From positions 717-64,716 of the forward strand of contig JAURMM010000054.1 of NCBI GenBank assembly GCA_030830685.1: a stretch of 64,000 bases of DNA, given 5' to 3'. Both the position numbers and the translations under genes were made by a program. The notes beneath the pieces are model-generated. The model was given only the letters and a program-made list of their open reading frames with translations, was not told the DNA's origin and ran no database searches. Of this stretch, positions 47,424-57,132 are shown in pieces (position 1 is the stretch's first letter; every line of letters begins with the position of its first letter). Origin of the DNA: Gammaproteobacteria bacterium. GTDB lineage: Bacteria; Pseudomonadota; Gammaproteobacteria; Ga0077536.

Positions 47424-50400
47424 TCAGCCCATCACAATCAGCAGATCCTTGGCATCGACCTGCTGACCGAGGGAGACGGTCACCTGCTTGATCTCCCCCG
47501 GTTGCTCTGCCCGAATCGAGGTCTGCATCTTCATGGCCTCGAGAATCATCAGCACTTCACCGCGCTCCACGGTTTCGCCGGCTTTGATGCAGATTTGGGT
47601 GATGACGCCCGGCATGGGAGCGCCAAGCTGCAGCGGATTGTCCTTCTCGACCTTGGGATGAGGGGGGCGTGGCTGTACGCGCGTACGATCTGCCACCTTG
47701 ATGGGTCGCGGTTGGCCGTTGATCTCGAAGAACACCGTACGGTGGTCGTCATCGTGGGGATCGCTGGTGCCCAGGTAGCGAACGATGAGAGCCTTGCCCT
47801 CGGTAAGCACGATGTTCACTTCCTGGCCCGCTTCCATTCCGTAGAAGAACACCGGGGTGGGCAGTGGCGTCAGTTCGCCGAACTGACGCTGGGAGGCCGC
47901 AAATTCTGTGAAGACCTTCGGGTACATCAGCCACGAGGCAAACTCGGGATCGCTGATGGTTCGTTGGGCCTGTCGCTCGGCTTCCTCGCGCGCTGCCACC
48001 ATGTCCACTGGTGGCATGCTGGCCCCCGGTCTGCCTTCAAGTGGGGGTGTGCCATTGAGAATCTTGTGTTGCAATGCGGGCGGGAAGCCGCCGTAGGGTT
48101 GACCGAGGTCTCCATGGAAGAAAGACACCACGGATTCAGGGAAGGTGACTTCCACTGCCGGATCTTCCGCTTCCTGCCGGGTCAGTCCGCTGGTGACCAT
48201 CATCAGCGCCATGTCTCCCACCACCTTGGAACTGGGAGTGACTTTCACGATGTCACCGAACATGTCGTTGACCTCGGCGTAGGCGCGCGCCACTTCCGGC
48301 CAGCGTGCGGCTGAGATGCCAAGGGACAAGGCCTGCTCACGCAGATTCGTGAACTGGCCGCCAGGCATGCCGTGCACATAGACCTCGGAGGCACCAGAAC
48401 GGATGTCGCTCTCGAATGCAGCGTAGCTGCCACGTACCTGCTCCCAGTAACTGGACAAGGTACGAACATGGTCCGGGTTGAGATCGGTTGCACGCGGACC
48501 ATGGCGTAATGCCTCGACGATGGAGCCCAGGTTGGGCTGCGATGTGAGCCCGCTCAGCGCATCCATGGCAGCGTCAACCGCATCCACACCCGCCTCCACG
48601 GCTGCCAGCACACTGGCAGCAGAAATACCGCTGGTATCGTGGGTATGGAAGTGGATAGGCAAACTGATCTCGTTCTTCAGCGCCCGGACCAGGCTGTGCG
48701 CAGCTGCCGGGCGGCACAGGCCGGCCATGTCCTTGATGCCGATGATGTGGGCGCCCGCCTTTTCGAGCTGCTTGGCCAGTGAGACGTAGTACTTCAGATC
48801 GTATTTCGTGCAGTCCGGGTCAGTCAGGTTTCCGGTGTAGCAGATGGCAGCCTCAGCGAGCTTGCCCGTGCTGCGCACTGCATCGATGGCCACCCGCATG
48901 TTCTCCACCCAGTTCAGGGAGTCGAAGATTCGGAACACGTCTACCCCTTCACGCGCCGCTTGCTGCACGAAATACTCAACCACGTTGTCAGGGTAGTTCG
49001 TGTATCCCACGGCGTTGGACGCTCGCAGCAGCATCTGCAGCAGCAAGTTTGGCATCCGCTTGCGCAGCCCACGCAGACGTTCCCAGGGACATTCGTGCAG
49101 AAAGCGCATCGCCACATCGAAGGTCGCTCCGCCCCAGCATTCCACAGAGAAGAGACCAGGCAGGAGATGGGAATAGGCGTCAGCAATCTGCAGCATATCA
49201 AAGCTGCGCATGCGCGTAGCCAACAGGGACTGATGAGCGTCGCGGAAAGTGGTATCCGTCACCAGTGCCCGTTTCCGCTCAAGCATCCACTGCACGAAGC
49301 GCTCAGGCCCGAGCTCTTCAAGCAGCTGGCGTGTGCCCGGCGGGGGCGTGATTGCCGGTACTTCAGGCGGTTCCGGGATAACCAGACGCGTGGGGCGTGG
49401 CCGACCCTTGACCGCCTCGTTACCGTTCACGATCACATCACCCACGAAACGCAGCAGTGGCGTGGCGAAATCCTGACGGTGCTCCAGGTCGAACAATTCA
49501 GGGGTGGTGTCGATGAATGTGGTGACATACCGTGCGGAAGTAAAATCCGGATGGCGCAGCAGTTGTTCCAGGAACGGCAGATTTGTGACCACCCCGCGGA
49601 TGCGGAATTCGCGCAAGGCGCGCAGCATGCGCGCCGTAGTCTCATCGACTGAGGTGCCCCAAGCAGTGACCTTGACCAGCATGGAATCGTAATAGCGCGT
49701 GATCTGTGCGCCGGAATAGGCGGTCCCGGCATCCAAGCGAATACCGAATCCAGCGGGGCTCCGATAGGCCGTGATCGTGCCGTAGTCCGGGATGAAGTTG
49801 TTTTCCGGATCTTCCGTGGTGATCCGGCACTGCATCGCATAGCCGTTGCGATGCAACTCATCCTGTTGCGGCACCCCGCTTTCAGGACTGCCGATCGCGG
49901 CACCCTCGGCAATGCGGATCTGGGCCTTGACGATGTCGATCCCTGTTATTTCCTCGGTAACAGTGTGTTCCACCTGTATCCGGGGGTTCACTTCGATGAA
50001 ATACACCGCGCCGGTATCGGCGTCTTGCAGAAACTCCACCGTGCCCGCGTTATGGTAACCGGCCGCGCGACACAGTCGGACTGCCGAATCGCAGACCGCT
50101 GCACGCTGGGCCTCGTCCAGAAACATGGAGGGTGCGCGTTCGACGACTTTCTGGTTGCGTCGCTGCACTGTGCAGTCGCGATCGAAAAGATGTACCAGGT
50201 TGCCGTGCGTGTCGCCGATGATCTGGACCTCCACATGGCGTGCGCGACGAATCAGTTTCTCAAGATAAACTTCACCATTGCCGAAAGCCTGTTCCGCCTC
50301 TCGCCGTCCTACGGCTACCAGATCCAGTAGATCCTCTTCCCGTTCGATCACACGCATGCCGCGACCGCCGCCGCCCCATGAGGCCTTCAGCATGACGGGA

Positions 50401-50867
50401 TATCCGATACCCGAGGCCAGGGCACGGACGGCTGCAGCATCCTCGGGCAGAGGGCCGGTGGCCGGCATCACGGGCACCCCGGAAGATCCGGCCAGCTCGC
50501 GCGCAGCTACCTTGTTGCCGAGTGACCGCATCACTTCTGGGCGCGGGCCGATGAAGATGAGTCCCGCCGCCGCGCAGGCCTCTGCAAACTCGGGTCGTTC
50601 TGAAAGGAATCCGTAACCGGGATGAACGGCGTCTGCCCCGGCTTCCAATGCGATACGAATGATGTCGTCCTGATCGAGGTAGGCCTGTACTGGCGTCTTC
50701 CCTTTGCCCACCAGAAAAGCGCGATCAACCTTGAAGCGATGCAGAGCGAAGCGATCCTCCTGCGAGTAGATCGCGACCGTTTCGATTTCTAGTTCTGCGG
50801 CGGCGCGCATCACGCGGATGGCGATTTCACCGCGATTGGCGACCAGTAGACGTTTTATCTTACGCAT
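47424..50867 (-). CDS. pyc: Pyruvate carboxylase (single-chain: biotin carboxylase, carboxyltransferase and BCCP domains)
   Basis: N-terminal biotin carboxylase (IKRLLVANRGEIAIRVMRAA), central carboxyltransferase TIM barrel (...FRIFDSLN...HFHTHDTSG), and a C-terminal biotinyl motif LEAMKMQ. Start trimmed to the ATG at 50867. Confidence 0.95.
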   Translation of the reverse strand: MRKIKRLLVANRGEIAIRVMRAAAELEIETVAIYSQEDRFALHRFKVDRAFLVGKGKTPVQAYLDQDDIIRIALEAGADAVHPGYGFLSERPEFAEACAAAGLIFIGPRPEVMRSLGNKVAARELAGSSGVPVMPATGPLPEDAAAVRALASGIGYPVMLKASWGGGGRGMRVIEREEDLLDLVAVGRREAEQAFGNGEVYLEKLIRRARHVEVQIIGDTHGNLVHLFDRDCTVQRRNQKVVERAPSMFLDEAQRAAVCDSAVRLCRAAGYHNAGTVEFLQDADTGAVYFIEVNPRIQVEHTVTEEITGIDIVKAQIRIAEGAAIGSPESGVPQQDELHRNGYAMQCRITTEDPENNFIPDYGTITAYRSPAGFGIRLDAGTAYSGAQITRYYDSMLVKVTAWGTSVDETTARMLRALREFRIRGVVTNLPFLEQLLRHPDFTSARYVTTFIDTTPELFDLEHRQDFATPLLRFVGDVIVNGNEAVKGRPRPTRLVIPEPPEVPAITPPPGTRQLLEELGPERFVQWMLERKRALVTDTTFRDAHQSLLATRMRSFDMLQIADAYSHLLPGLFSVECWGGATFDVAMRFLHECPWERLRGLRKRMPNLLLQMLLRASNAVGYTNYPDNVVEYFVQQAAREGVDVFRIFDSLNWVENMRVAIDAVRSTGKLAEAAICYTGNLTDPDCTKYDLKYYVSLAKQLEKAGAHIIGIKDMAGLCRPAAAHSLVRALKNEISLPIHFHTHDTSGISAASVLAAVEAGVDAVDAAMDALSGLTSQPNLGSIVEALRHGPRATDLNPDHVRTLSSYWEQVRGSYAAFESDIRSGASEVYVHGMPGGQFTNLREQALSLGISAARWPEVARAYAEVNDMFGDIVKVTPSSKVVGDMALMMVTSGLTRQEAEDPAVEVTFPESVVSFFHGDLGQPYGGFPPALQHKILNGTPPLEGRPGASMPPVDMVAAREEAERQAQRTISDPEFASWLMYPKVFTEFAASQRQFGELTPLPTPVFFYGMEAGQEVNIVLTEGKALIVRYLGTSDPHDDDHRTVFFEINGQPRPIKVADRTRVQPRPPHPKVEKDNPLQLGAPMPGVITQICIKAGETVERGEVLMILEAMKMQTSIRAEQPGEIKQVTVSLGQQVDAKDLLIVMG

Positions 50868-51066
50868 GGGCTTGTGTCGTCCGCAGTGCGACGCAGGGCG
50901 TAGCACGCGTGGTTGTGTTTTCAGACAGGTACGCAATGAATACGGGCGGACTCTACACGAGGGTTGTCGGGCACGGAAGCCAGCGCCCTGCGACGTTTAT
51001 ATCTGCCTCAAGCGAGAGCGTCAGGCGTGAAAGCGCACCGCATCAGTGCCGTGCGTTCGTGAGCAT

Positions 51067-51831
51067 TCAGATCATCCGCCTGCCGAGCACGAGTCCACGG
51101 TGGCGCATGCGCTCCAGGATTTCGAGGCCGCCACTCAGGACCATATCCGGGGCGGAATGTCCCAATGCTTGCGCCAGCTCGGTGAGCACTTGTCGCACAG
51201 GCATCTCCGGGCCGTCACGCAAGCGCTCGAACAACGTGCGGGTCACCGCATTGAGTTCCAGCACGTGCAACTGATGTACTGCATCCCGGAACACCACCAG
51301 ATGGGTCTCCCGCACAGACTCCGCGGAAGCCAAAGCCTCCGGAGGCGCGGCATGGACCGCATAGCGATAGCTGGCCAGCCGATGCACCGGGTTGATGAAG
51401 ACCGGGTGTTCCAGCAGGTCGCCTTTGCGGTCGAAGCCATGCACTGGGACTGTCTGTTCGTCGCAGGCAACCGCATTTTCCAACCACTCGAAGTGGGCAA
51501 GCTCAGGGACCTGCGGGGGCAGTGAGGCAGGTGCATGGCGGCCCGTCAGGAAAGACAGGAATTCTCCCGGAAGGCGCGGGAACGCGGCGGTCTGTGCCGG
51601 GTGATCGCGGAGGTAGCAATCAACCAGATCATCCCACACGTCAGCGGTCAAGGCCGCCCTGACGCGTGGAAAATTGTCCGCCATGAACCGTTCGACGTTA
51701 TGGCGCACAGCGTACCGGTACACCTCCAGCCGTTCGCCAGAGAGGCCTTCCGGGGGGGCCTCATGCCGGGGATCGCGAAGATAGCGGACGAAGCTGCGTT
51801 GCGCCGTGATGAAAGACGGTGAGTTCTTCAT
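51067..51831 (-). CDS. DUF2063-family RiPP maturation partner (HvfC/BufC/MbnC-like role)
   Basis: FITAQRSFVRYLRDPRH...LEVYRYAVRHNVERFMADNFPRVRAAL...WDDLVDCYLRDHP fits the DUF2063 N-terminal pattern. It starts 7 nt after the DUF692 gene's stop. ATG at 51831. Confidence 0.75.
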   Translation of the reverse strand: MKNSPSFITAQRSFVRYLRDPRHEAPPEGLSGERLEVYRYAVRHNVERFMADNFPRVRAALTADVWDDLVDCYLRDHPAQTAAFPRLPGEFLSFLTGRHAPASLPPQVPELAHFEWLENAVACDEQTVPVHGFDRKGDLLEHPVFINPVHRLASYRYAVHAAPPEALASAESVRETHLVVFRDAVHQLHVLELNAVTRTLFERLRDGPEMPVRQVLTELAQALGHSAPDMVLSGGLEILERMRHRGLVLGRRMI

Positions 51832-51838
51832 GACGGCC

Positions 51839-52669
51839 TCAGCGGCGTCCTGGTGCCTGCTGCTGGAGATGAGCGATGTGCGCAACTTCCGTCATGACCG
51901 CGGGTAGCGACGGGATGTTTTCGTCACGCTCCAGCAGGGTGGGAAAAGTCCCATGGATGGAATAAGCATCGCGCAGCAGCTCCCAGACCGGATCGATCAC
52001 CGGCGCACCATGGGAATCGATGATGAGTCCGCTCTCCGTGCGGAGGTGGCCCGCAATATGCGCATAGGCGATGCGGTGCGATGGAATGCCGCGCAGGAAG
52101 TCTCGTGGGTCATAGCCATGATTGCAGGCGTTGACCCAGACGTTGTTCACGTCCAGCAGCAGATCGCAATCTGCTACCTCCAGCACAAGCCGGATGAAAT
52201 CCAGTTCGCTCATCTCCTGCATCACTACGCAGTAGTAGGAGGGATTCTCGACCGCGATCCGCCGACGCAGAACATCTTGAACCTGTCTGATTCTGGCCGC
52301 GAGATGGTGTGCAGACTCCTCGGTGAAAGGCACGGGGAGCAGCTCGTACAAAAGCCCGGAGTCCCCGCAGAAGCTGAGATGGTCTCCATATATGCGGATG
52401 TCATACCGGTCGAGGAAGGCGCCGATTTCCCGTATGTGGCCGAGGTCGAGGGGATCGGGTCCTCCCAGATTCAGCAGCAGGCCATGACCGGCCAGGGGAA
52501 TGCGGGAGGCAATGTTCGCGAGAGTCTCGCCCAGCCGCCCTCCGGCGCCCAGCCAGTTTTCCGGGGCAACCTCCATGAAGGAAACTGGAGCGGGGATGTC
52601 CTTGAGCAGGGCCCCCAAGTGGGGGCGCCTGAGACCGAGGCCCGCACCGTGAAGCTGTCGGGGACTCAC
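51839..52669 (-). CDS. DUF692 / multinuclear non-heme iron oxidase (MNIO) family peptide-modifying enzyme
   Basis: GAGLGLRRPH...FMEVAPENW...GHGLLLNLGG...YGDHLSF...IAVENPSYY...DVNNVWVNACNHGYDP...YAHIAGH is the TIM-barrel DUF692 signature. GTG start. Confidence 0.85.
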   Translation of the reverse strand: MSPRQLHGAGLGLRRPHLGALLKDIPAPVSFMEVAPENWLGAGGRLGETLANIASRIPLAGHGLLLNLGGPDPLDLGHIREIGAFLDRYDIRIYGDHLSFCGDSGLLYELLPVPFTEESAHHLAARIRQVQDVLRRRIAVENPSYYCVVMQEMSELDFIRLVLEVADCDLLLDVNNVWVNACNHGYDPRDFLRGIPSHRIAYAHIAGHLRTESGLIIDSHGAPVIDPVWELLRDAYSIHGTFPTLLERDENIPSLPAVMTEVAHIAHLQQQAPGRR

Positions 52670-52726: not shown

Positions 52727-53038
52727 TTACTTCTTCTGAACGTGCGGCATGGAGCAGCTGGCGCTGCCAAAGGTCCCGCACACAGCCGGATCCTTGGTGC
52801 CGGTGGCGAGTTTTCCACTCGCATATTTTGCCTGCTGATCGCCGCCATAGTTGAAGCCTGTCTCATCGTCGATGGCGACCTTGTTGCCTTGCATGTCGAC
52901 CGCGTCCCCGGCCACCGTCACTGGTGCGCCGAACTCGACCATCTGGAACGGATTGTCGGCGTTGGCCGTTGCGGAGAGTGCCAATGCCATGGACGAGCCG
53001 ATCGCGAGCGCGACAGGCTTCAGGGTGTTCTTCTTCAT
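52727..53038 (-). CDS. Secreted 103-aa candidate RiPP precursor with a C-terminal CG-x6-CS motif
   Basis: Strong SD GAGGAGGAAGG upstream of the ATG at 53038. Sec signal MKKNTLKPVALAIGSSMALALSATANA, then DNPFQMVEFG... The only two Cys lie near the C-terminus: ...DPAVCGTFGSASCSMPHVQKK. It lies immediately upstream of the MNIO and DUF2063 genes on the same strand. Confidence 0.75.
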   Translation of the reverse strand: MKKNTLKPVALAIGSSMALALSATANADNPFQMVEFGAPVTVAGDAVDMQGNKVAIDDETGFNYGGDQQAKYASGKLATGTKDPAVCGTFGSASCSMPHVQKK

Positions 53039-53299
53039 CTGACCTTCCTCCTCGTTGCAAGAATTGCGTTCTGGTCGACCTCTGCGCAAAAACGCCAAAA
53101 CGGCCGATAATTCCGGACGCGGTCGCGAACCGCCCGGTGGTAGTGCCGGGCTCTCGGCGATGGTATGTCGCCCCCCATAGGCTGTAAACCAGCCTCGTGT
53201 CGGGGCGTTTAAGATCTCCGCCGGGGGCTCCTCGTGGCTGCGTCAGGTCGGTATGGTCAGGGATAGCGGTGGGCGAGGAATCTGTAACAGGGAGAACCG

Positions 53300-54352
53300 G
53301 TGAAACGAGCCCGGGTGTTCGTGGGGAGTTGCTTGACGCTCTGGTTTTGCTACGCCGGGGAAGCCGGCGCGGCAGATCTTGCGCGTGCGGCGCTCGCGCG
53401 CGGTGACGAGTCCGCCGCGTTCGACCAATTCCTGCGCCGTGCCGAAAATGGTGACCCAATCGCCCAGAACAACGTGGGTGTGCTGTTCCTCAAGGGGCGG
53501 GGCACTGGGCGCGACTTCGGAGAGGCTCGACGATGGTTCCAGGCTGCGGCCGATAAAGGTCTGCCCGGGGCCATGCATAACCTCGGTGTCCTGTATCTGC
53601 GCGGCCACGGCACGCAGTCCGATCCGGCGCAGGCAGCGGAGTGGTTCACCAAAGCCGCCGAACTAGGCGACGCTGACGCGCAGTTCTATCTCGCCCGCCT
53701 GCTCTATGAAGGCGAGGGCATGGCGCAGGACCTGTCGGGTGCCCGTCACTGGTTCACACGCGCCGCCGATCAAGGCCTGCCCGCTGCTGGTTTCAATGTC
53801 GCGCTCATGCTGTTGCGGGGCCAAGGAGGCGCACCGGACGAAGCCCAGGCGCTGGCGTATCTTCAGCCGCTCGCGGCAGAGAATGAGACGGCGCGCTTGC
53901 TCATCGCCCAGATTCATCTCATACATGCAGCCGACCCTGCTCGCGCCGCACTGGCGCTAGCCGACTTGCGCCCACTGGCCGAGGCCGGCAATCCGGAAGC
54001 GCAATATCACCTCGGCATGATGCTGATTCTAGGGCAGGGTCTCGCCCGGGACTACGAGGAAGGACGGTTCTGGCTGCAGCAGGCCAGCCGCGCGGGCTTC
54101 GTGCCGGCGCAGGTCAATCTGGCAGGACTCTACGAGCGTGGCCTCGGTGTTGCGCCGGATCCGGTCGAAGCCGTTGCCTGGTACGAGATAGCCGTGTCCA
54201 ATGGAGATGCGGCCGCCGCCATCGTGCTGGCCAGACTGCGCGAAGACTTGTCCCCCCCTGAGCGCGCCCGCGCAGAGGCCCTGACGGTCGAATTGCGCGC
54301 GCGGCACCCGGATATCGTGCGCAGCACGGATGTGCCAGCCGCCACCCCCTGA
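53300..54352 (+). CDS. Secreted Sel1-like repeat (SLR/TPR-like) protein
   Basis: GTG start preceded by GGGAGA. Signal peptide MKRARVFVGSCLTLWFCYAGEAGA. About 8 SLR units follow (AQNNVGVLFLKGRGTGRDFGEARRWFQAAADKG; AMHNLGVLYLRGHGTQSDPAQAAEWFTKAAELG; ...). Confidence 0.8.
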   Translation: MKRARVFVGSCLTLWFCYAGEAGAADLARAALARGDESAAFDQFLRRAENGDPIAQNNVGVLFLKGRGTGRDFGEARRWFQAAADKGLPGAMHNLGVLYLRGHGTQSDPAQAAEWFTKAAELGDADAQFYLARLLYEGEGMAQDLSGARHWFTRAADQGLPAAGFNVALMLLRGQGGAPDEAQALAYLQPLAAENETARLLIAQIHLIHAADPARAALALADLRPLAEAGNPEAQYHLGMMLILGQGLARDYEEGRFWLQQASRAGFVPAQVNLAGLYERGLGVAPDPVEAVAWYEIAVSNGDAAAAIVLARLREDLSPPERARAEALTVELRARHPDIVRSTDVPAATP

Positions 54353-54377
54353 ATCTTTTCCCTCACCGGAGCCTGGC

Positions 54378-55043
54378 ATGTTGCCCACTCTCATCCTTGA
54401 CATGGACGGGACACTGCTCGACCTGAATTTCGATGACCAAGTGTGGAATCACGCCCTGCCGCGAGCGCTTGCGGCGTTGGAAGGCGAATCCGAGGCCAAG
54501 GTGCGGGCGAAGGTGGCAGCGACGCTTGCCGCGGCGAAGGGTTCTCTGGCCTGGTATTGCCTGGACCATTGGGAACGGGTGTTCGGCGTCTCTGTGCATG
54601 CGCTTGAGCTCGAACTGGCCGAATTGATTGCCTTGCGGCCGGGCACGCTCCAGTTTCTCGAGTTTTTTCGCGCCGAAGGATATCCCGCCCTCATTGCCAC
54701 GAATGCGCATCCGGGCAGCCTGGCGCGCAAGATGCTCCACACGGGTATCGAGGGTTATTTCTCACACCTGGTAAGCGCGCATACCTTGGGCATCCCCAAG
54801 GAAGATCCTGCGTTCTGGCAGCGCTTGCGCGGCGTAGTGCCATTTCTGCCGGAACATGCCGTGTTCGTGGATGACAATGCGGCAGTGCTCGATTCCGCGC
54901 GGCAGTGGGGCATACGCCATCTTTTCGGGGTGCGAAGCCCAAGCAGCACTGGCGGGACGAAGACTTTCGACGATTACCAGAGCGTGGACAGTCTGGCGGA
55001 GCTCATTCCGTGGCTGCGTGGTCTGCAGGCTCCCGGCGAGTAG
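54378..55043 (+). CDS. HAD-family hydrolase (YrfG-like nucleotidase type)
   Basis: LILDMDGTLLDL...ATNAH...FVDDNAAVLDSA HAD motifs. Start trimmed to the ATG at 54378. Confidence 0.75.
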   Translation: MLPTLILDMDGTLLDLNFDDQVWNHALPRALAALEGESEAKVRAKVAATLAAAKGSLAWYCLDHWERVFGVSVHALELELAELIALRPGTLQFLEFFRAEGYPALIATNAHPGSLARKMLHTGIEGYFSHLVSAHTLGIPKEDPAFWQRLRGVVPFLPEHAVFVDDNAAVLDSARQWGIRHLFGVRSPSSTGGTKTFDDYQSVDSLAELIPWLRGLQAPGE

Positions 55044-55762: not shown

Positions 55763-56578
55763 TCAGCTGAAGAAAGTGCCATCCAGCGGCGACGACGCCG
55801 AGGCATGGGTGCGCCTCGGCATGCGCCCGGCACGATAGGCCAGGCGACCTGCCATCACTGCGTGACGCATGGCCTCGGCCATCACGATGGGCTGGCGCGC
55901 CTCCGCAATGGCGGTATTCATGAGCACGGCATCGCAACCCAGCTCCATGGCAATACTGGCATCGGATGCTGTGCCGACGCCGGCATCCACGATCACCGGC
56001 ACGGAGACGGTTTCGACGATTTCACGCAAGGTGTAGCGATTCTGCACCCCGAGCCCCGAGCCGATGGGGGCCGCAAGCGGCATGATGGCGACGCAACCGA
56101 TTTCCTCCAGGCGTTTTGCCATGATCGGGTCGTCGGTGGTGTAGACCATGACTTCAAAGCCCTCGCGACACAGAATTTCGGCGGCTTTGAGCGTTTCGGT
56201 GATGTTGGGGTAGAGCGTTTTCTGGTCGCCCAACACTTCGAGCTTCACCAGGCGATGATCATCCAGCATCTCGCGTGCAAGGCGGCAGGTTCTGACGGCG
56301 CTGTCCATATCGTAGCAACCTGCGGTGTTGGGCAGCAGCGTGTAGCGCTCGGGGGGCAGATAATCGAGTAAATTGGGACTGGCGCTGTCCTGGCCCAGGT
56401 TGGTGCGACGAATCGCAACTGTCACGATCTGGGCGCCGCTGGCCTCGATGGCCTGGCGCGTCTCCTCGAAATCCTTGTACTTGCCGGTCCCTACCAGAAG
56501 CCGTGAAGCATAAGCCTTGCCGGCGATGATCAAGGGCTCCTCATTGCCAGTGGTCACGTCAGAATGCGTCGCGCTCAT
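55763..56578 (-). CDS. thiG: Thiazole synthase
   Basis: [14 protein letters not shown]...VTVAIRR...LLPNTAGC...[13 protein letters not shown]...[13 protein letters not shown]. Confidence 0.95.
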
Positions 56579-57058: not shown

Positions 57059-57132
57059 GCGGGTGTAGTTCAATGGCAGAACATCAGCTTCCCAAGCTGA
57101 GAGCGTGGGTTCGATTCCCATCACCCGCTCCA
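57059..57132 (+). tRNA. tRNA-Gly (anticodon CCC)
   Basis: GCGGGTG-TA-GTTC-AATGGCA-GAAC-A-TCAGC-TTCCCAA-GCTGA-GAGC-GTGGG-TTCGATT-CCCAT-CACCCGC-T-CCA. The cloverleaf folds by hand and the CCA is encoded. Confidence 0.95.

Follow-up and report, generated by a model that had tools for sequence, protein, structure and literature searches.

A repeat-free two-Cys candidate precursor beside HvfB- and HvfC-type genes in uncultured Gammaproteobacteria

Introduction

Clusters that pair an oxidative enzyme of the multinuclear nonheme iron-dependent type (MNIO, DUF692) with a DUF2063 partner are among the most widespread systems in Pseudomonadota that resemble those for peptides made by the ribosome and modified after translation (RiPPs), and current surveys place their substrates in a small number of Cys-rich classes. 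Cys is the target of every characterized HvfB/BufB-clade enzyme, and the characterized products of this clade, namely bufferins, oxazolin, fontiphorin, gonophorin, and bulbicupramide, are copper-binding peptides. Precursors with EGKCG repeats, the 'Lys-Cys' captophorins, comprise HvfA (oxazolin, Haemophilus influenzae), FonA (fontiphorin, Fontimonas thermophila), NgoA (gonophorin), and MmrA (bulbicupramide, Microbulbifer). Products of the HvfB/BufB clade have been reassigned as 5-thiooxazoles, not oxazolone/thioamides, each marked by a loss of 4 Da, absorbance at ~305 nm, and reactivity toward iodoacetamide (PMC13097082). Here, we analyze a window of 64 kb (the whole 64,000-nucleotide stretch of contig JAURMM010000054.1, from a Gammaproteobacteria bacterium), in which an open reading frame (ORF) of 103 amino acids (aa), directly upstream of HvfB- and HvfC-type genes, encodes a candidate precursor with only two Cys.

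Methanobactin is a further point of reference. The core of MbnA from Methylosinus trichosporium OB3b reads LCGSCYPCSCM, and this precursor, which has no signal peptide, has its leader cleaved so that a small secreted chalkophore is released. Sec signal peptides are documented for the bufferin and HvfA precursors. Bufferin 1 (BufA1) of Caulobacter vibrioides is a 68-aa exported product that carries two 5-thiooxazoles and binds periplasmic copper (PMC11626156). A survey of the MNIO landscape (Antoine et al. 2025, PMC12452194) describes minor groups with signal peptides, namely CxxxxC, adjamnio-3, and 'hundreds of small ORFs with 1-18 Cys'. As published surveys list many unclassified small signal-peptide ORFs beside MNIOs, a further precursor type is in itself no surprise.

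Results

A Two-Cys ORF Precedes HvfB- and HvfC-Type Genes

The best reading of the sequence is that the ORF encodes a precursor that branched off from the EGKCG 'Lys-Cys' captophorins (oxazolin/fontiphorin) and has two Cys but no repeats. We consider it probable, with appreciable room for doubt, that the ORF is a dedicated HvfB/HvfC substrate in which Cys87 and Cys95 would be made into 5-thiooxazoles, giving an exported product of ~76 aa that would bind one Cu. The precursor gene, its parts, and the two enzyme genes are as follows.

52727..53038, minus strand: precursor gene, 103 aa, span given with its stop codon; composed of a signal peptide, an NPF leader, a conserved middle segment, and a two-Cys core
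53043..53053, minus strand: Shine-Dalgarno sequence GAGGAGGAAGG, read from the sequence, ending 4 nt before the ATG
52958..53038, minus strand: Sec-type signal peptide, residues 1-27, from sequence features (a basic n-region, MKKNTLK, a hydrophobic stretch, and A-N-A before the predicted cleavage)
52904..52957, minus strand: segment resembling a leader, residues 28-45, DNPFQMVEFGAPVTVAGD; proposed to be bound by the RiPP recognition element (RRE) of HvfC
52805..52903, minus strand: Cys-free middle segment, residues 46-78, AVDMQGNKVAIDDETGFNYGGDQQAKYASGKLA; part of a conserved ~55-aa module
52730..52804, minus strand: C-terminal core, residues 79-103, TGTKDPAVCGTFGSASCSMPHVQKK; holds Cys87 and Cys95
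51839..52669, minus strand: HvfB-family MNIO (DUF692), 276 aa from a GTG; PF05114 E 1e-95, NF003818 366.7 bits
51067..51885, minus strand: HvfC-family partner with a DUF2063 N-domain and an NGO1945_C/RRE-like C-domain; PF09836 and PF22106

The minus-strand ORF (53038..52727) runs from an ATG at 53038 to a TAA stop at 52729..52727 and encodes the pre-protein MKKNTLKPVALAIGSSMALALSATANADNPFQMVEFGAPVTVAGDAVDMQGNKVAIDDETGFNYGGDQQAKYASGKLATGTKDPAVCGTFGSASCSMPHVQKK; gene callers applied to other contigs predict this 103-aa ORF there too. We discounted a longer, 123-aa form from a TTG at 53098, since homologs start with MKK and a separate ribosome-binding site precedes it. Residues 1-27 (MKKNTLKPVALAIGSSMALALSATANA) are conserved among homologs, and signal peptidase is predicted to cut after A-N-A27; the cleavage site after ATANA proposed in the initial annotation agrees with the A-x-A rule, but the mature chain would start with DNPF and not ADNPF. 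The tail KDPAVCGTFGSASCSMPHVQKK comes after DNPFQMVEFG and 55 Cys-free residues, and holds Cys87 (TGC at 52780..52778, in the context V-C-G) and Cys95 (TGC at 52756..52754, S-C-S), spaced C-x7-C, with no further Cys anywhere in the precursor. The Cys codon positions and the length of the Cys-free stretch (55 residues from ADNPF to Cys87) given in that annotation were both exact. Ahead of the core lies a Lys and Gly-rich stretch.

Matches of the precursor to Pfam HupE_UreJ_2 and NCBIfam FapC were far below cutoff and mostly over the signal peptide, and were discarded. So were a putative attenuator hairpin between the precursor and MNIO genes, whose stability does not exceed that of shuffled sequence (z = 0.37), and a sigma-70-like site at 53188..53160 (minus strand), a single weak site at chance level in a promoter/terminator scan. 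A profile search with the precursor family found no match below E 0.5 among PDB sequences. AlphaFold2, run on an alignment of 36 sequences (A1) and on a more diverse one of 41 (A2), gave no confident fold (mean predicted local distance difference test 46 and 50), hence no argument on metal-site geometry can be drawn from them. Strong conservation together with this lack of a predicted fold more likely reflects linear motifs read by partners, or folding upon metal binding, than a stable domain.

The window MNIO passes the HvfB equivalog NF003818 (cutoff 360 bits) and its partner passes the HvfC equivalog NF050145 (202.3 bits, cutoff 142), whereas the MNIO falls below the BufB cutoff (259.6 against 310 bits) and far below that of the MbnB model TIGR04159 (27.5 against 325 bits); no MbnC family occurred among the matches of the two neighboring proteins. 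Judged by these models, the window MNIO is a member of the HvfB/BufB clade, not of MbnB, and the methanobactin-type chemistry implied by the initial annotation would not be expected of it. The locus has the adjacent HvfB/BufB-clade MNIO and PME-type 1 partner that characterize the captophorin class (PMC13097082). On identical contigs the MNIO is annotated as 259 aa from an internal TTG, cutting off the conserved GAGLGLRR motif, of which the two Arg have been studied in FonB; the GTG at 52669, which keeps this motif, is the more plausible start. For the partner, the longest ORF begins with a TTG at 51885, the likely start is the ATG at 51831 (254 aa), and the partner is annotated as 254 aa on identical contigs.

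Like methanobactin, this system has an enzyme of the MNIO superfamily and Cys before small residues (C-G, C-S), and two heterocycles would serve one Cu site. Unlike methanobactin, it pairs a non-MbnB enzyme with a DUF2063/PME-type 1 partner instead of MbnC, its precursor has a signal peptide, and the heterocycle expected on the window precursor is a 5-thiooxazole, not an oxazolone/thioamide. Bufferin 1 is closer in that a long Sec-exported precursor is acted on by an MNIO and DUF2063 pair, which in bufferin 1 makes two 5-thiooxazoles with no leader removal. It differs in that the window precursor has no DUF2282 match at E <= 1 and the MNIO misses the BufB cutoff; BufA1 has four Cys (two modified and one disulfide) and is predicted to be folded, whereas the two-Cys window precursor yields no confident fold. 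A small metal carrier with two heterocycles is less novel than first implied, bufferin 1 being already such a copper binder (PMC11626156).

Natural Hybrids Link the ORF to EGKCG Precursors

With EGKCG systems the window locus shares a Sec signal peptide, the order precursor-MNIO-DUF2063, scores above the HvfB and HvfC cutoffs, and protease-free loci where genes were called, and with many EGKCG precursors, partly including FonA, it shares an NPFxMxE(L/F)xxG..VA leader. Unlike those precursors it has no EGKCG/KCG repeats, only two Cys as opposed to 5 to 58, and no Lys before either Cys, and a conserved ~55-aa nonrepetitive module takes the place of the low-complexity repeats. Having two Cys in V-C-G and S-C-S contexts, it belongs to neither the DUF2282 nor the Lys-Cys nor the Cys-Lys group of captophorin precursors.

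An exhaustive profile search of 1.84 billion representative proteins returned only 51 proteins at E <= 1e-3, including canonical EGKCG-repeat precursors (P0151, P0155, P0158, P0159, P0164, and P0169) that were matched via their signal peptide and NPF(S/A)MxE(L/F)xSGYMVA, covering about residues 1-50 of the two-Cys precursor. When signal peptides were removed, an hhalign comparison of the leader alone with EGKCG leaders gave 97.9% probability (E 3.5e-13, 20 columns). Hybrids (L056, L060, L061, L069, and P0127) carry a signal peptide, an NPF leader, several (E)GKCG repeats, and the two-Cys module as a tail (VDMQGNVVxLGxFxYGGDNxxxYxxGKLATGxKDPAVCGTFSxAKCSVxHLK), and an intermediate, L055, has two degenerate repeats. 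MNIO and DUF2063 genes lie downstream in L055, L060, L061, and L069, and L056 stops at a contig edge. These natural hybrids are the strongest evidence tying the two-Cys precursor to the EGKCG precursors.

The initial annotation had taken an NPF element to be shared with EGKCG precursors, which holds for many of them (hhalign, the profile search, and hybrids) but not for H. influenzae HvfA or NgoA, where the motif is absent; FonA has only FQxxDLxxGYMVA of it. Across loci, the leader was present in 49 and absent in one of those with an MNIO versus seven and seven of those lacking one (Fisher p = 4e-5, uncorrected for phylogeny), an association that fits the leader as the HvfC recognition element. 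The window precursor had no match at E <= 1 to the HvfA-family models NF050137 and NF050188, while the controls HvfA, FonA, P0164, and P0169 and the hybrids L056 and L069 passed NF050137 (cutoff 19.5 bits). Its separateness from curated MNIO substrates, as originally claimed, is thus upheld, since no Pfam or NCBIfam model matched it, whereas HvfA, FonA, and hybrid controls were matched.

Several long proteins (P0139, P0141, P0142, P0146, P0149, and others) were rejected as homologs, being FN3/EPTP-repeat proteins whose individual repeats score <=11 bits. Their ~40-residue repeat, AADNxWxSVTYGNGLFVAV..GxGNRVM, is loosely like ADNPFQMVEFGxGVTVAG.AVDMQGNKV and produced repeat-summed matches at profile positions 22-59; this resemblance to the leader and middle segment is probably fortuitous.

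The Precursor Is More Conserved than Its Enzymes

Searching 5.8 billion clustered proteins turned up 170 relatives, of which the 120 listed are 69-97% identical and ~103 aa long. Exactly two Cys occur in 119 of these 120 clusters, the sole exception being an N-terminally overextended gene call, and all named homologs among those listed are annotated 'hypothetical'. Residues invariant in a 36-sequence alignment include some in the leader (P30, F31, Q32, M33, and E35), the middle segment (D48, M49, G51, T60, G61, F62, G65, G66, D67, Y72, G75, and K76), and the core (G80, K82, D83, P84, V86, C87, G88, C95, S96, and H99), and Met is the commonest residue at position 97. The close family keeps both elements for which conservation had been proposed, ADNPF and the two Cys. 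A codon comparison of 44 orthologs (946 pairs) gave nonsynonymous divergence (pN) of 0.16 versus synonymous divergence (pS) of 0.65, the latter saturated, and pN/pS was lowest in the C-terminal core, the most constrained segment of the precursor. The precursor gene is under purifying selection and represents a real conserved family. Mean identity was 73% for the precursor, 64% for the MNIO, and 41% for the partner, the precursor being highest in 43 of 44 loci.

Scanning a single genome for each GTDB species, we recovered 70 loci, all from metagenome-assembled genomes (MAGs) and nearly all labeled Gammaproteobacteria or Pseudomonadota; the two-Cys precursor family is so far restricted to uncultured Gammaproteobacteria. 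Some environmental MAGs bear odd organism labels (Klebsiella pneumoniae for L006, L012, L032, and L051; Hydrogenophaga intermedia for L036; Dehalococcoidia for L048), and in some the family locus sits on a very short contig, which suggests mislabeling or binning contamination in public records. One family member, P0098, is a Trinity transcript in a dinoflagellate transcriptome (EukProt EP00747, Dinoflagellata sp. TGD); it most likely derives from an associated bacterium and is a weak hint that the family is transcribed in nature.

The Locus Is Syntenic across Diverged Genomes

Precursor, MNIO, and DUF2063 genes are collinear, tightly spaced, and on one strand in 46 informative window-type loci (>=60% identity), and four hybrid loci beyond these share the same order. 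The only orphan among window-type orthologs is a paralog, L043, so the proposed co-occurrence with DUF692 and DUF2063 is confirmed for the close family. The conserved site consists of thiG-trmB, opposite-strand HAD and Sel1 genes, the precursor cluster, and then the pyruvate carboxylase gene pycA, and it is conserved in ~40 loci although TrmB and Sel1 are only 41-61% identical to those of the window. Such synteny across diverged flanking proteins implies old, vertical inheritance of the cluster. The neighboring features in the window are as follows.

53300..54352, plus strand: secreted Sel1-repeat protein, divergent from the precursor
54330..55043, plus strand: HAD hydrolase, divergent from the precursor
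57059..57129 (plus strand), 55763..56578 (minus strand), and 47424..50936 (minus strand): flanking housekeeping genes, with a tRNA, thiG (and thiS upstream of it), and trmB to one side of the cluster and pyruvate carboxylase to the other

The Sel1 and HAD genes, syntenic in ~40 loci, are absent from L047, where the cluster is present, and from L052 and L053, where the cluster enzymes are absent; no functional link of the two genes to the cluster is evident. Identical contigs continue past the flanking genes with a 405-aa Redoxin/AhpC-TSA protein and a two-component system.

It is highly improbable that the ORF encodes an unrelated small periplasmic protein that merely adjoins hvfBC, with the real substrate encoded elsewhere. 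The ORF indeed matches no curated precursor model and has MNIO-less relatives, but in 46 loci, with flanking genes that diverge to ~41-55% identity, it directly precedes a co-oriented MNIO gene, its leader is homologous to that of bona fide EGKCG precursors with which hybrids exist, and the 64-kb window holds no other small Cys-rich ORF that could take its place.

Gene content also bears on the fate of the product. Where genes were called, the loci contain no protease, exporter, or TonB-dependent receptor, and the remaining loci have the same thiG-trmB ... pycA synteny. This argues against a leader-plus-follower arrangement, which we regard as very unlikely, in which a C-terminal peptide of ~20 residues with two modified Cys would be cleaved off as a diffusible methanobactin-like chalkophore and the rest would serve recognition only. 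Such a peptide is suggested by the position of both Cys within the last 17 residues, by C-G/C-S dyads like those of the methanobactin core, and by the Lys and Gly-rich stretch ahead of the core. Its release is at odds, however, with a Sec signal peptide that implies delivery of the whole chain to the periplasm, with the unmatched MbnB model and the lack of an MbnC family among the matches of the two neighbors, and with the bufferins and oxazolin, which remain full-length after signal-peptide removal; moreover, the middle segment is conserved even in relatives that lack the leader and the MNIO, so it is more than a recognition handle. Between the protein-sized carrier and the released peptide that the initial annotation had offered, a long secreted product is favored by conservation of the whole mature chain and by loci free of protease or exporter genes, and release is not.

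An MNIO Contact Residue Covaries with the Precursor Core

In the fontiphorin study, FonB Phe250, the neighbor of the catalytic Asp249, contacts the substrate on either side of the modified Cys; in Cys-Lys-type enzymes Asp occupies the position, and F250D alters substrate tolerance. We aligned MNIOs of the fetched loci with FonB and NgoB, and window-type enzymes kept the catalytic Asp, the Arg-Arg motif, and the invariant His/Asp/Glu. Phe occupies the position of FonB residue 250 not only in FonB and NgoB but also in each of the four MNIOs beside Lys-Cys hybrids. In contrast to these EGKCG enzymes, none of the 47 MNIOs beside precursors without a Lys-Cys dyad has Phe there, the residue being Glu in 40, Leu in four, Val in two, and Ile in one; the window MNIO has Glu (LLERDENIP). 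This split looks like that expected of an enzyme adapting to a new core, though it is not independent statistical proof. FonBC needs a small +1 residue after Cys and also modified an NVCGG motif, and the Cys-Gly and Cys-Ser dyads of the precursor fit this preference.

The Module Also Occurs without the Enzymes

Several observations weigh against the best reading given above. Module relatives lack MNIO and DUF2063 genes in the fetched flank of 14 informative loci, half of which keep the NPF leader (L043, L048, L051, L057, L058, L059, and L063) and half of which have lost it (L052, L053, L064, L065, L066, L068, and L070). Leaderless relatives have the signal peptide, of lipoprotein type in L065 and P0135, joined directly to (E)A/GRDMxGNxV. 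L052 (3687-3944) and L053 (6001-6201) occupy the syntenic site thiG-trmB-gene-pycA and keep both Cys without MNIO, HvfC, or leader. Both Cys are indeed kept in all 14 MNIO-less loci except L059, where a three-Cys ORF call is probably overextended upstream. The distant relatives P0129 and P0150 have the first Cys only, and L049 has an MNIO but no leader. In addition, the loci with called genes contain no DoxX, sigma/anti-sigma, or copper-resistance gene, the lack of DoxX being a further difference from EGKCG systems, and the Phe-to-Glu pattern splits along clades, which could reflect phylogeny instead of adaptation. In view of the MNIO-less relatives that keep both Cys, the pair may function without modification, for instance through a disulfide or as thiolates. 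The occurrence of homologs mostly without MNIO neighbors, which had been named in advance as grounds for doubting the proposal, is limited in the close family to the one orphan L043 and is partly seen in the wider module family, whose distant relatives include MNIO-less and, in seven cases, leaderless forms.

On the strength of such relatives, the module could be an autonomous periplasmic peptide with the Cys pair serving unmodified as a disulfide or thiolate metal site, the window-clade MNIO modifying one Cys (most likely that of V-C-G) or acting otherwise on the chain. We judge this unlikely, yet deserving of serious weight. It draws on the MNIO-less relatives, seven of them leaderless and some lipoprotein-signaled (L052, L053, L064-L066, L068, L070, P0131, P0135, and P0138), on the loss of enzyme genes at a syntenic site in L052 and L053, and on the distant relatives with a single Cys, and it has a precedent in H. 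influenzae HvfA, whose Cys38-Cys43 pair is an unmodified disulfide. However, the window-clade Cys pair comprises the only Cys of the precursor and the enzyme pair is kept in 46 informative loci, the MNIO contact residue differs systematically from that of Lys-Cys enzymes, and the characterized members of the clade are all Cys-acting; genomes with orphan modules may also carry hvfBC elsewhere. The leaderless orphans also show that the ~55-aa module is of use without a neighboring enzyme; it may act unmodified or be modified in trans without a leader, HvfB being able to modify leaderless HvfA fragments.

A tentative idea, which we hold to be possible but doubtful, is as follows: the ~55-aa module (DMxGNxV...YGGD...GKxxTGxKDPxVCGTFxxxxCS) would be an autonomous periplasmic metal- or partner-binding peptide, existing also in the absence of an MNIO, captured by the Hvf machinery as a tail of EGKCG precursors, after which the window lineage would have lost the repeats and its enzyme would have been respecified (Phe to Glu) onto the Cys pair of the module. 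If true, module capture would be a natural, stepwise case of a RiPP enzyme redirected onto another core. A housekeeping-like protein passed on vertically would have exchanged its thiol or disulfide site for a metal site built from heterocycles, and the module would possibly be a dedicated copper carrier and not a stress buffer.

Proposed Maturation and Copper Binding

Under the preferred reading, in which the ORF is an HvfB/HvfC substrate, the precursor gene would be translated, as indirectly supported by a strong ribosome-binding site, purifying selection, and one homolog transcript. In the cytoplasm, HvfC would bind the DNPFQMVEFG leader, as suggested by leader homology and by leader loss in half of the enzyme-less loci. 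HvfB, with O2 and a multi-iron site, would then convert Cys87 and Cys95 to 5-thiooxazoles (-4 Da each), as family membership and the covarying contact residue suggest; by analogy with the clade, 5-thiooxazoles are probably formed rather than the oxazolone/thioamides of methanobactin. Sec export and cleavage by signal peptidase I after A-N-A27, predicted from sequence features and precedent, would follow. The resulting ~76-aa, largely unstructured product may bind one periplasmic Cu ion via its two heterocycles, with Met97 and His99 as possible additional ligands, and would act as a copper buffer or carrier. The mature chain would be kept whole, with no short peptide set free.

Among relatives, L043 (6001-6378), L048 (411-698), and P0122 combine the NPF leader and two-Cys core with a Met-rich C-terminal extension (e.g., ...AMGAMKEEMTGKMMDKAMEGMEKMKDKL) similar to Cu(I)-binding motifs from the periplasm; the MAG that holds L043 has the MNIO-linked locus L003 as well, so that L043 is its second copy. 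The orphan L051 (1670-1969) lies 111 bp upstream of a gene for a plastocyanin/azurin-family cupredoxin (2080-2529; PF00127, E 1e-14). As clues to copper, the Met-rich tails, the cupredoxin neighbor, and His99/Met97 are suggestive only.

Discussion

In the MNIO survey (PMC12452194), the minor groups are the nearest counterparts of this family, each being a small ORF with a signal peptide ahead of an MNIO with a PME-type 1 partner, and adjamnio-3 is also predicted to be unstructured; the window motif C-x7-C differs from that of the CxxxxC group. The family was not found in published papers, and its sequence strings were not found in the supplementary text of two of them, nor were four member accessions in one (PMC12452194), though that text is partial and its alignments are images, so overlap with a described group is possible. 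As far as that partial record goes, what is new here is the repeat-free two-Cys architecture, the hybrid series leading to EGKCG precursors, the covariation of a residue in the active site, the relatives that lack the enzymes, and an occurrence limited to uncultured Gammaproteobacteria.

The range of the HvfB/HvfC pair would accordingly extend to a repeat-free two-Cys precursor that is more conserved than its enzymes. The evolutionary series runs from repeats only, through repeats plus module and module only, to the module without enzymes, and is accompanied by a covarying residue in the active site; it allows a direct test of how MNIOs encode their substrate specificity. A minimal substrate with two sites and one presumed metal site would ease mechanistic and spectroscopic study of 5-thiooxazole formation. 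For the organisms themselves, the family points to an unstudied, vertically inherited component of copper handling in abundant uncultured Gammaproteobacteria of freshwater, groundwater, and marine habitats.

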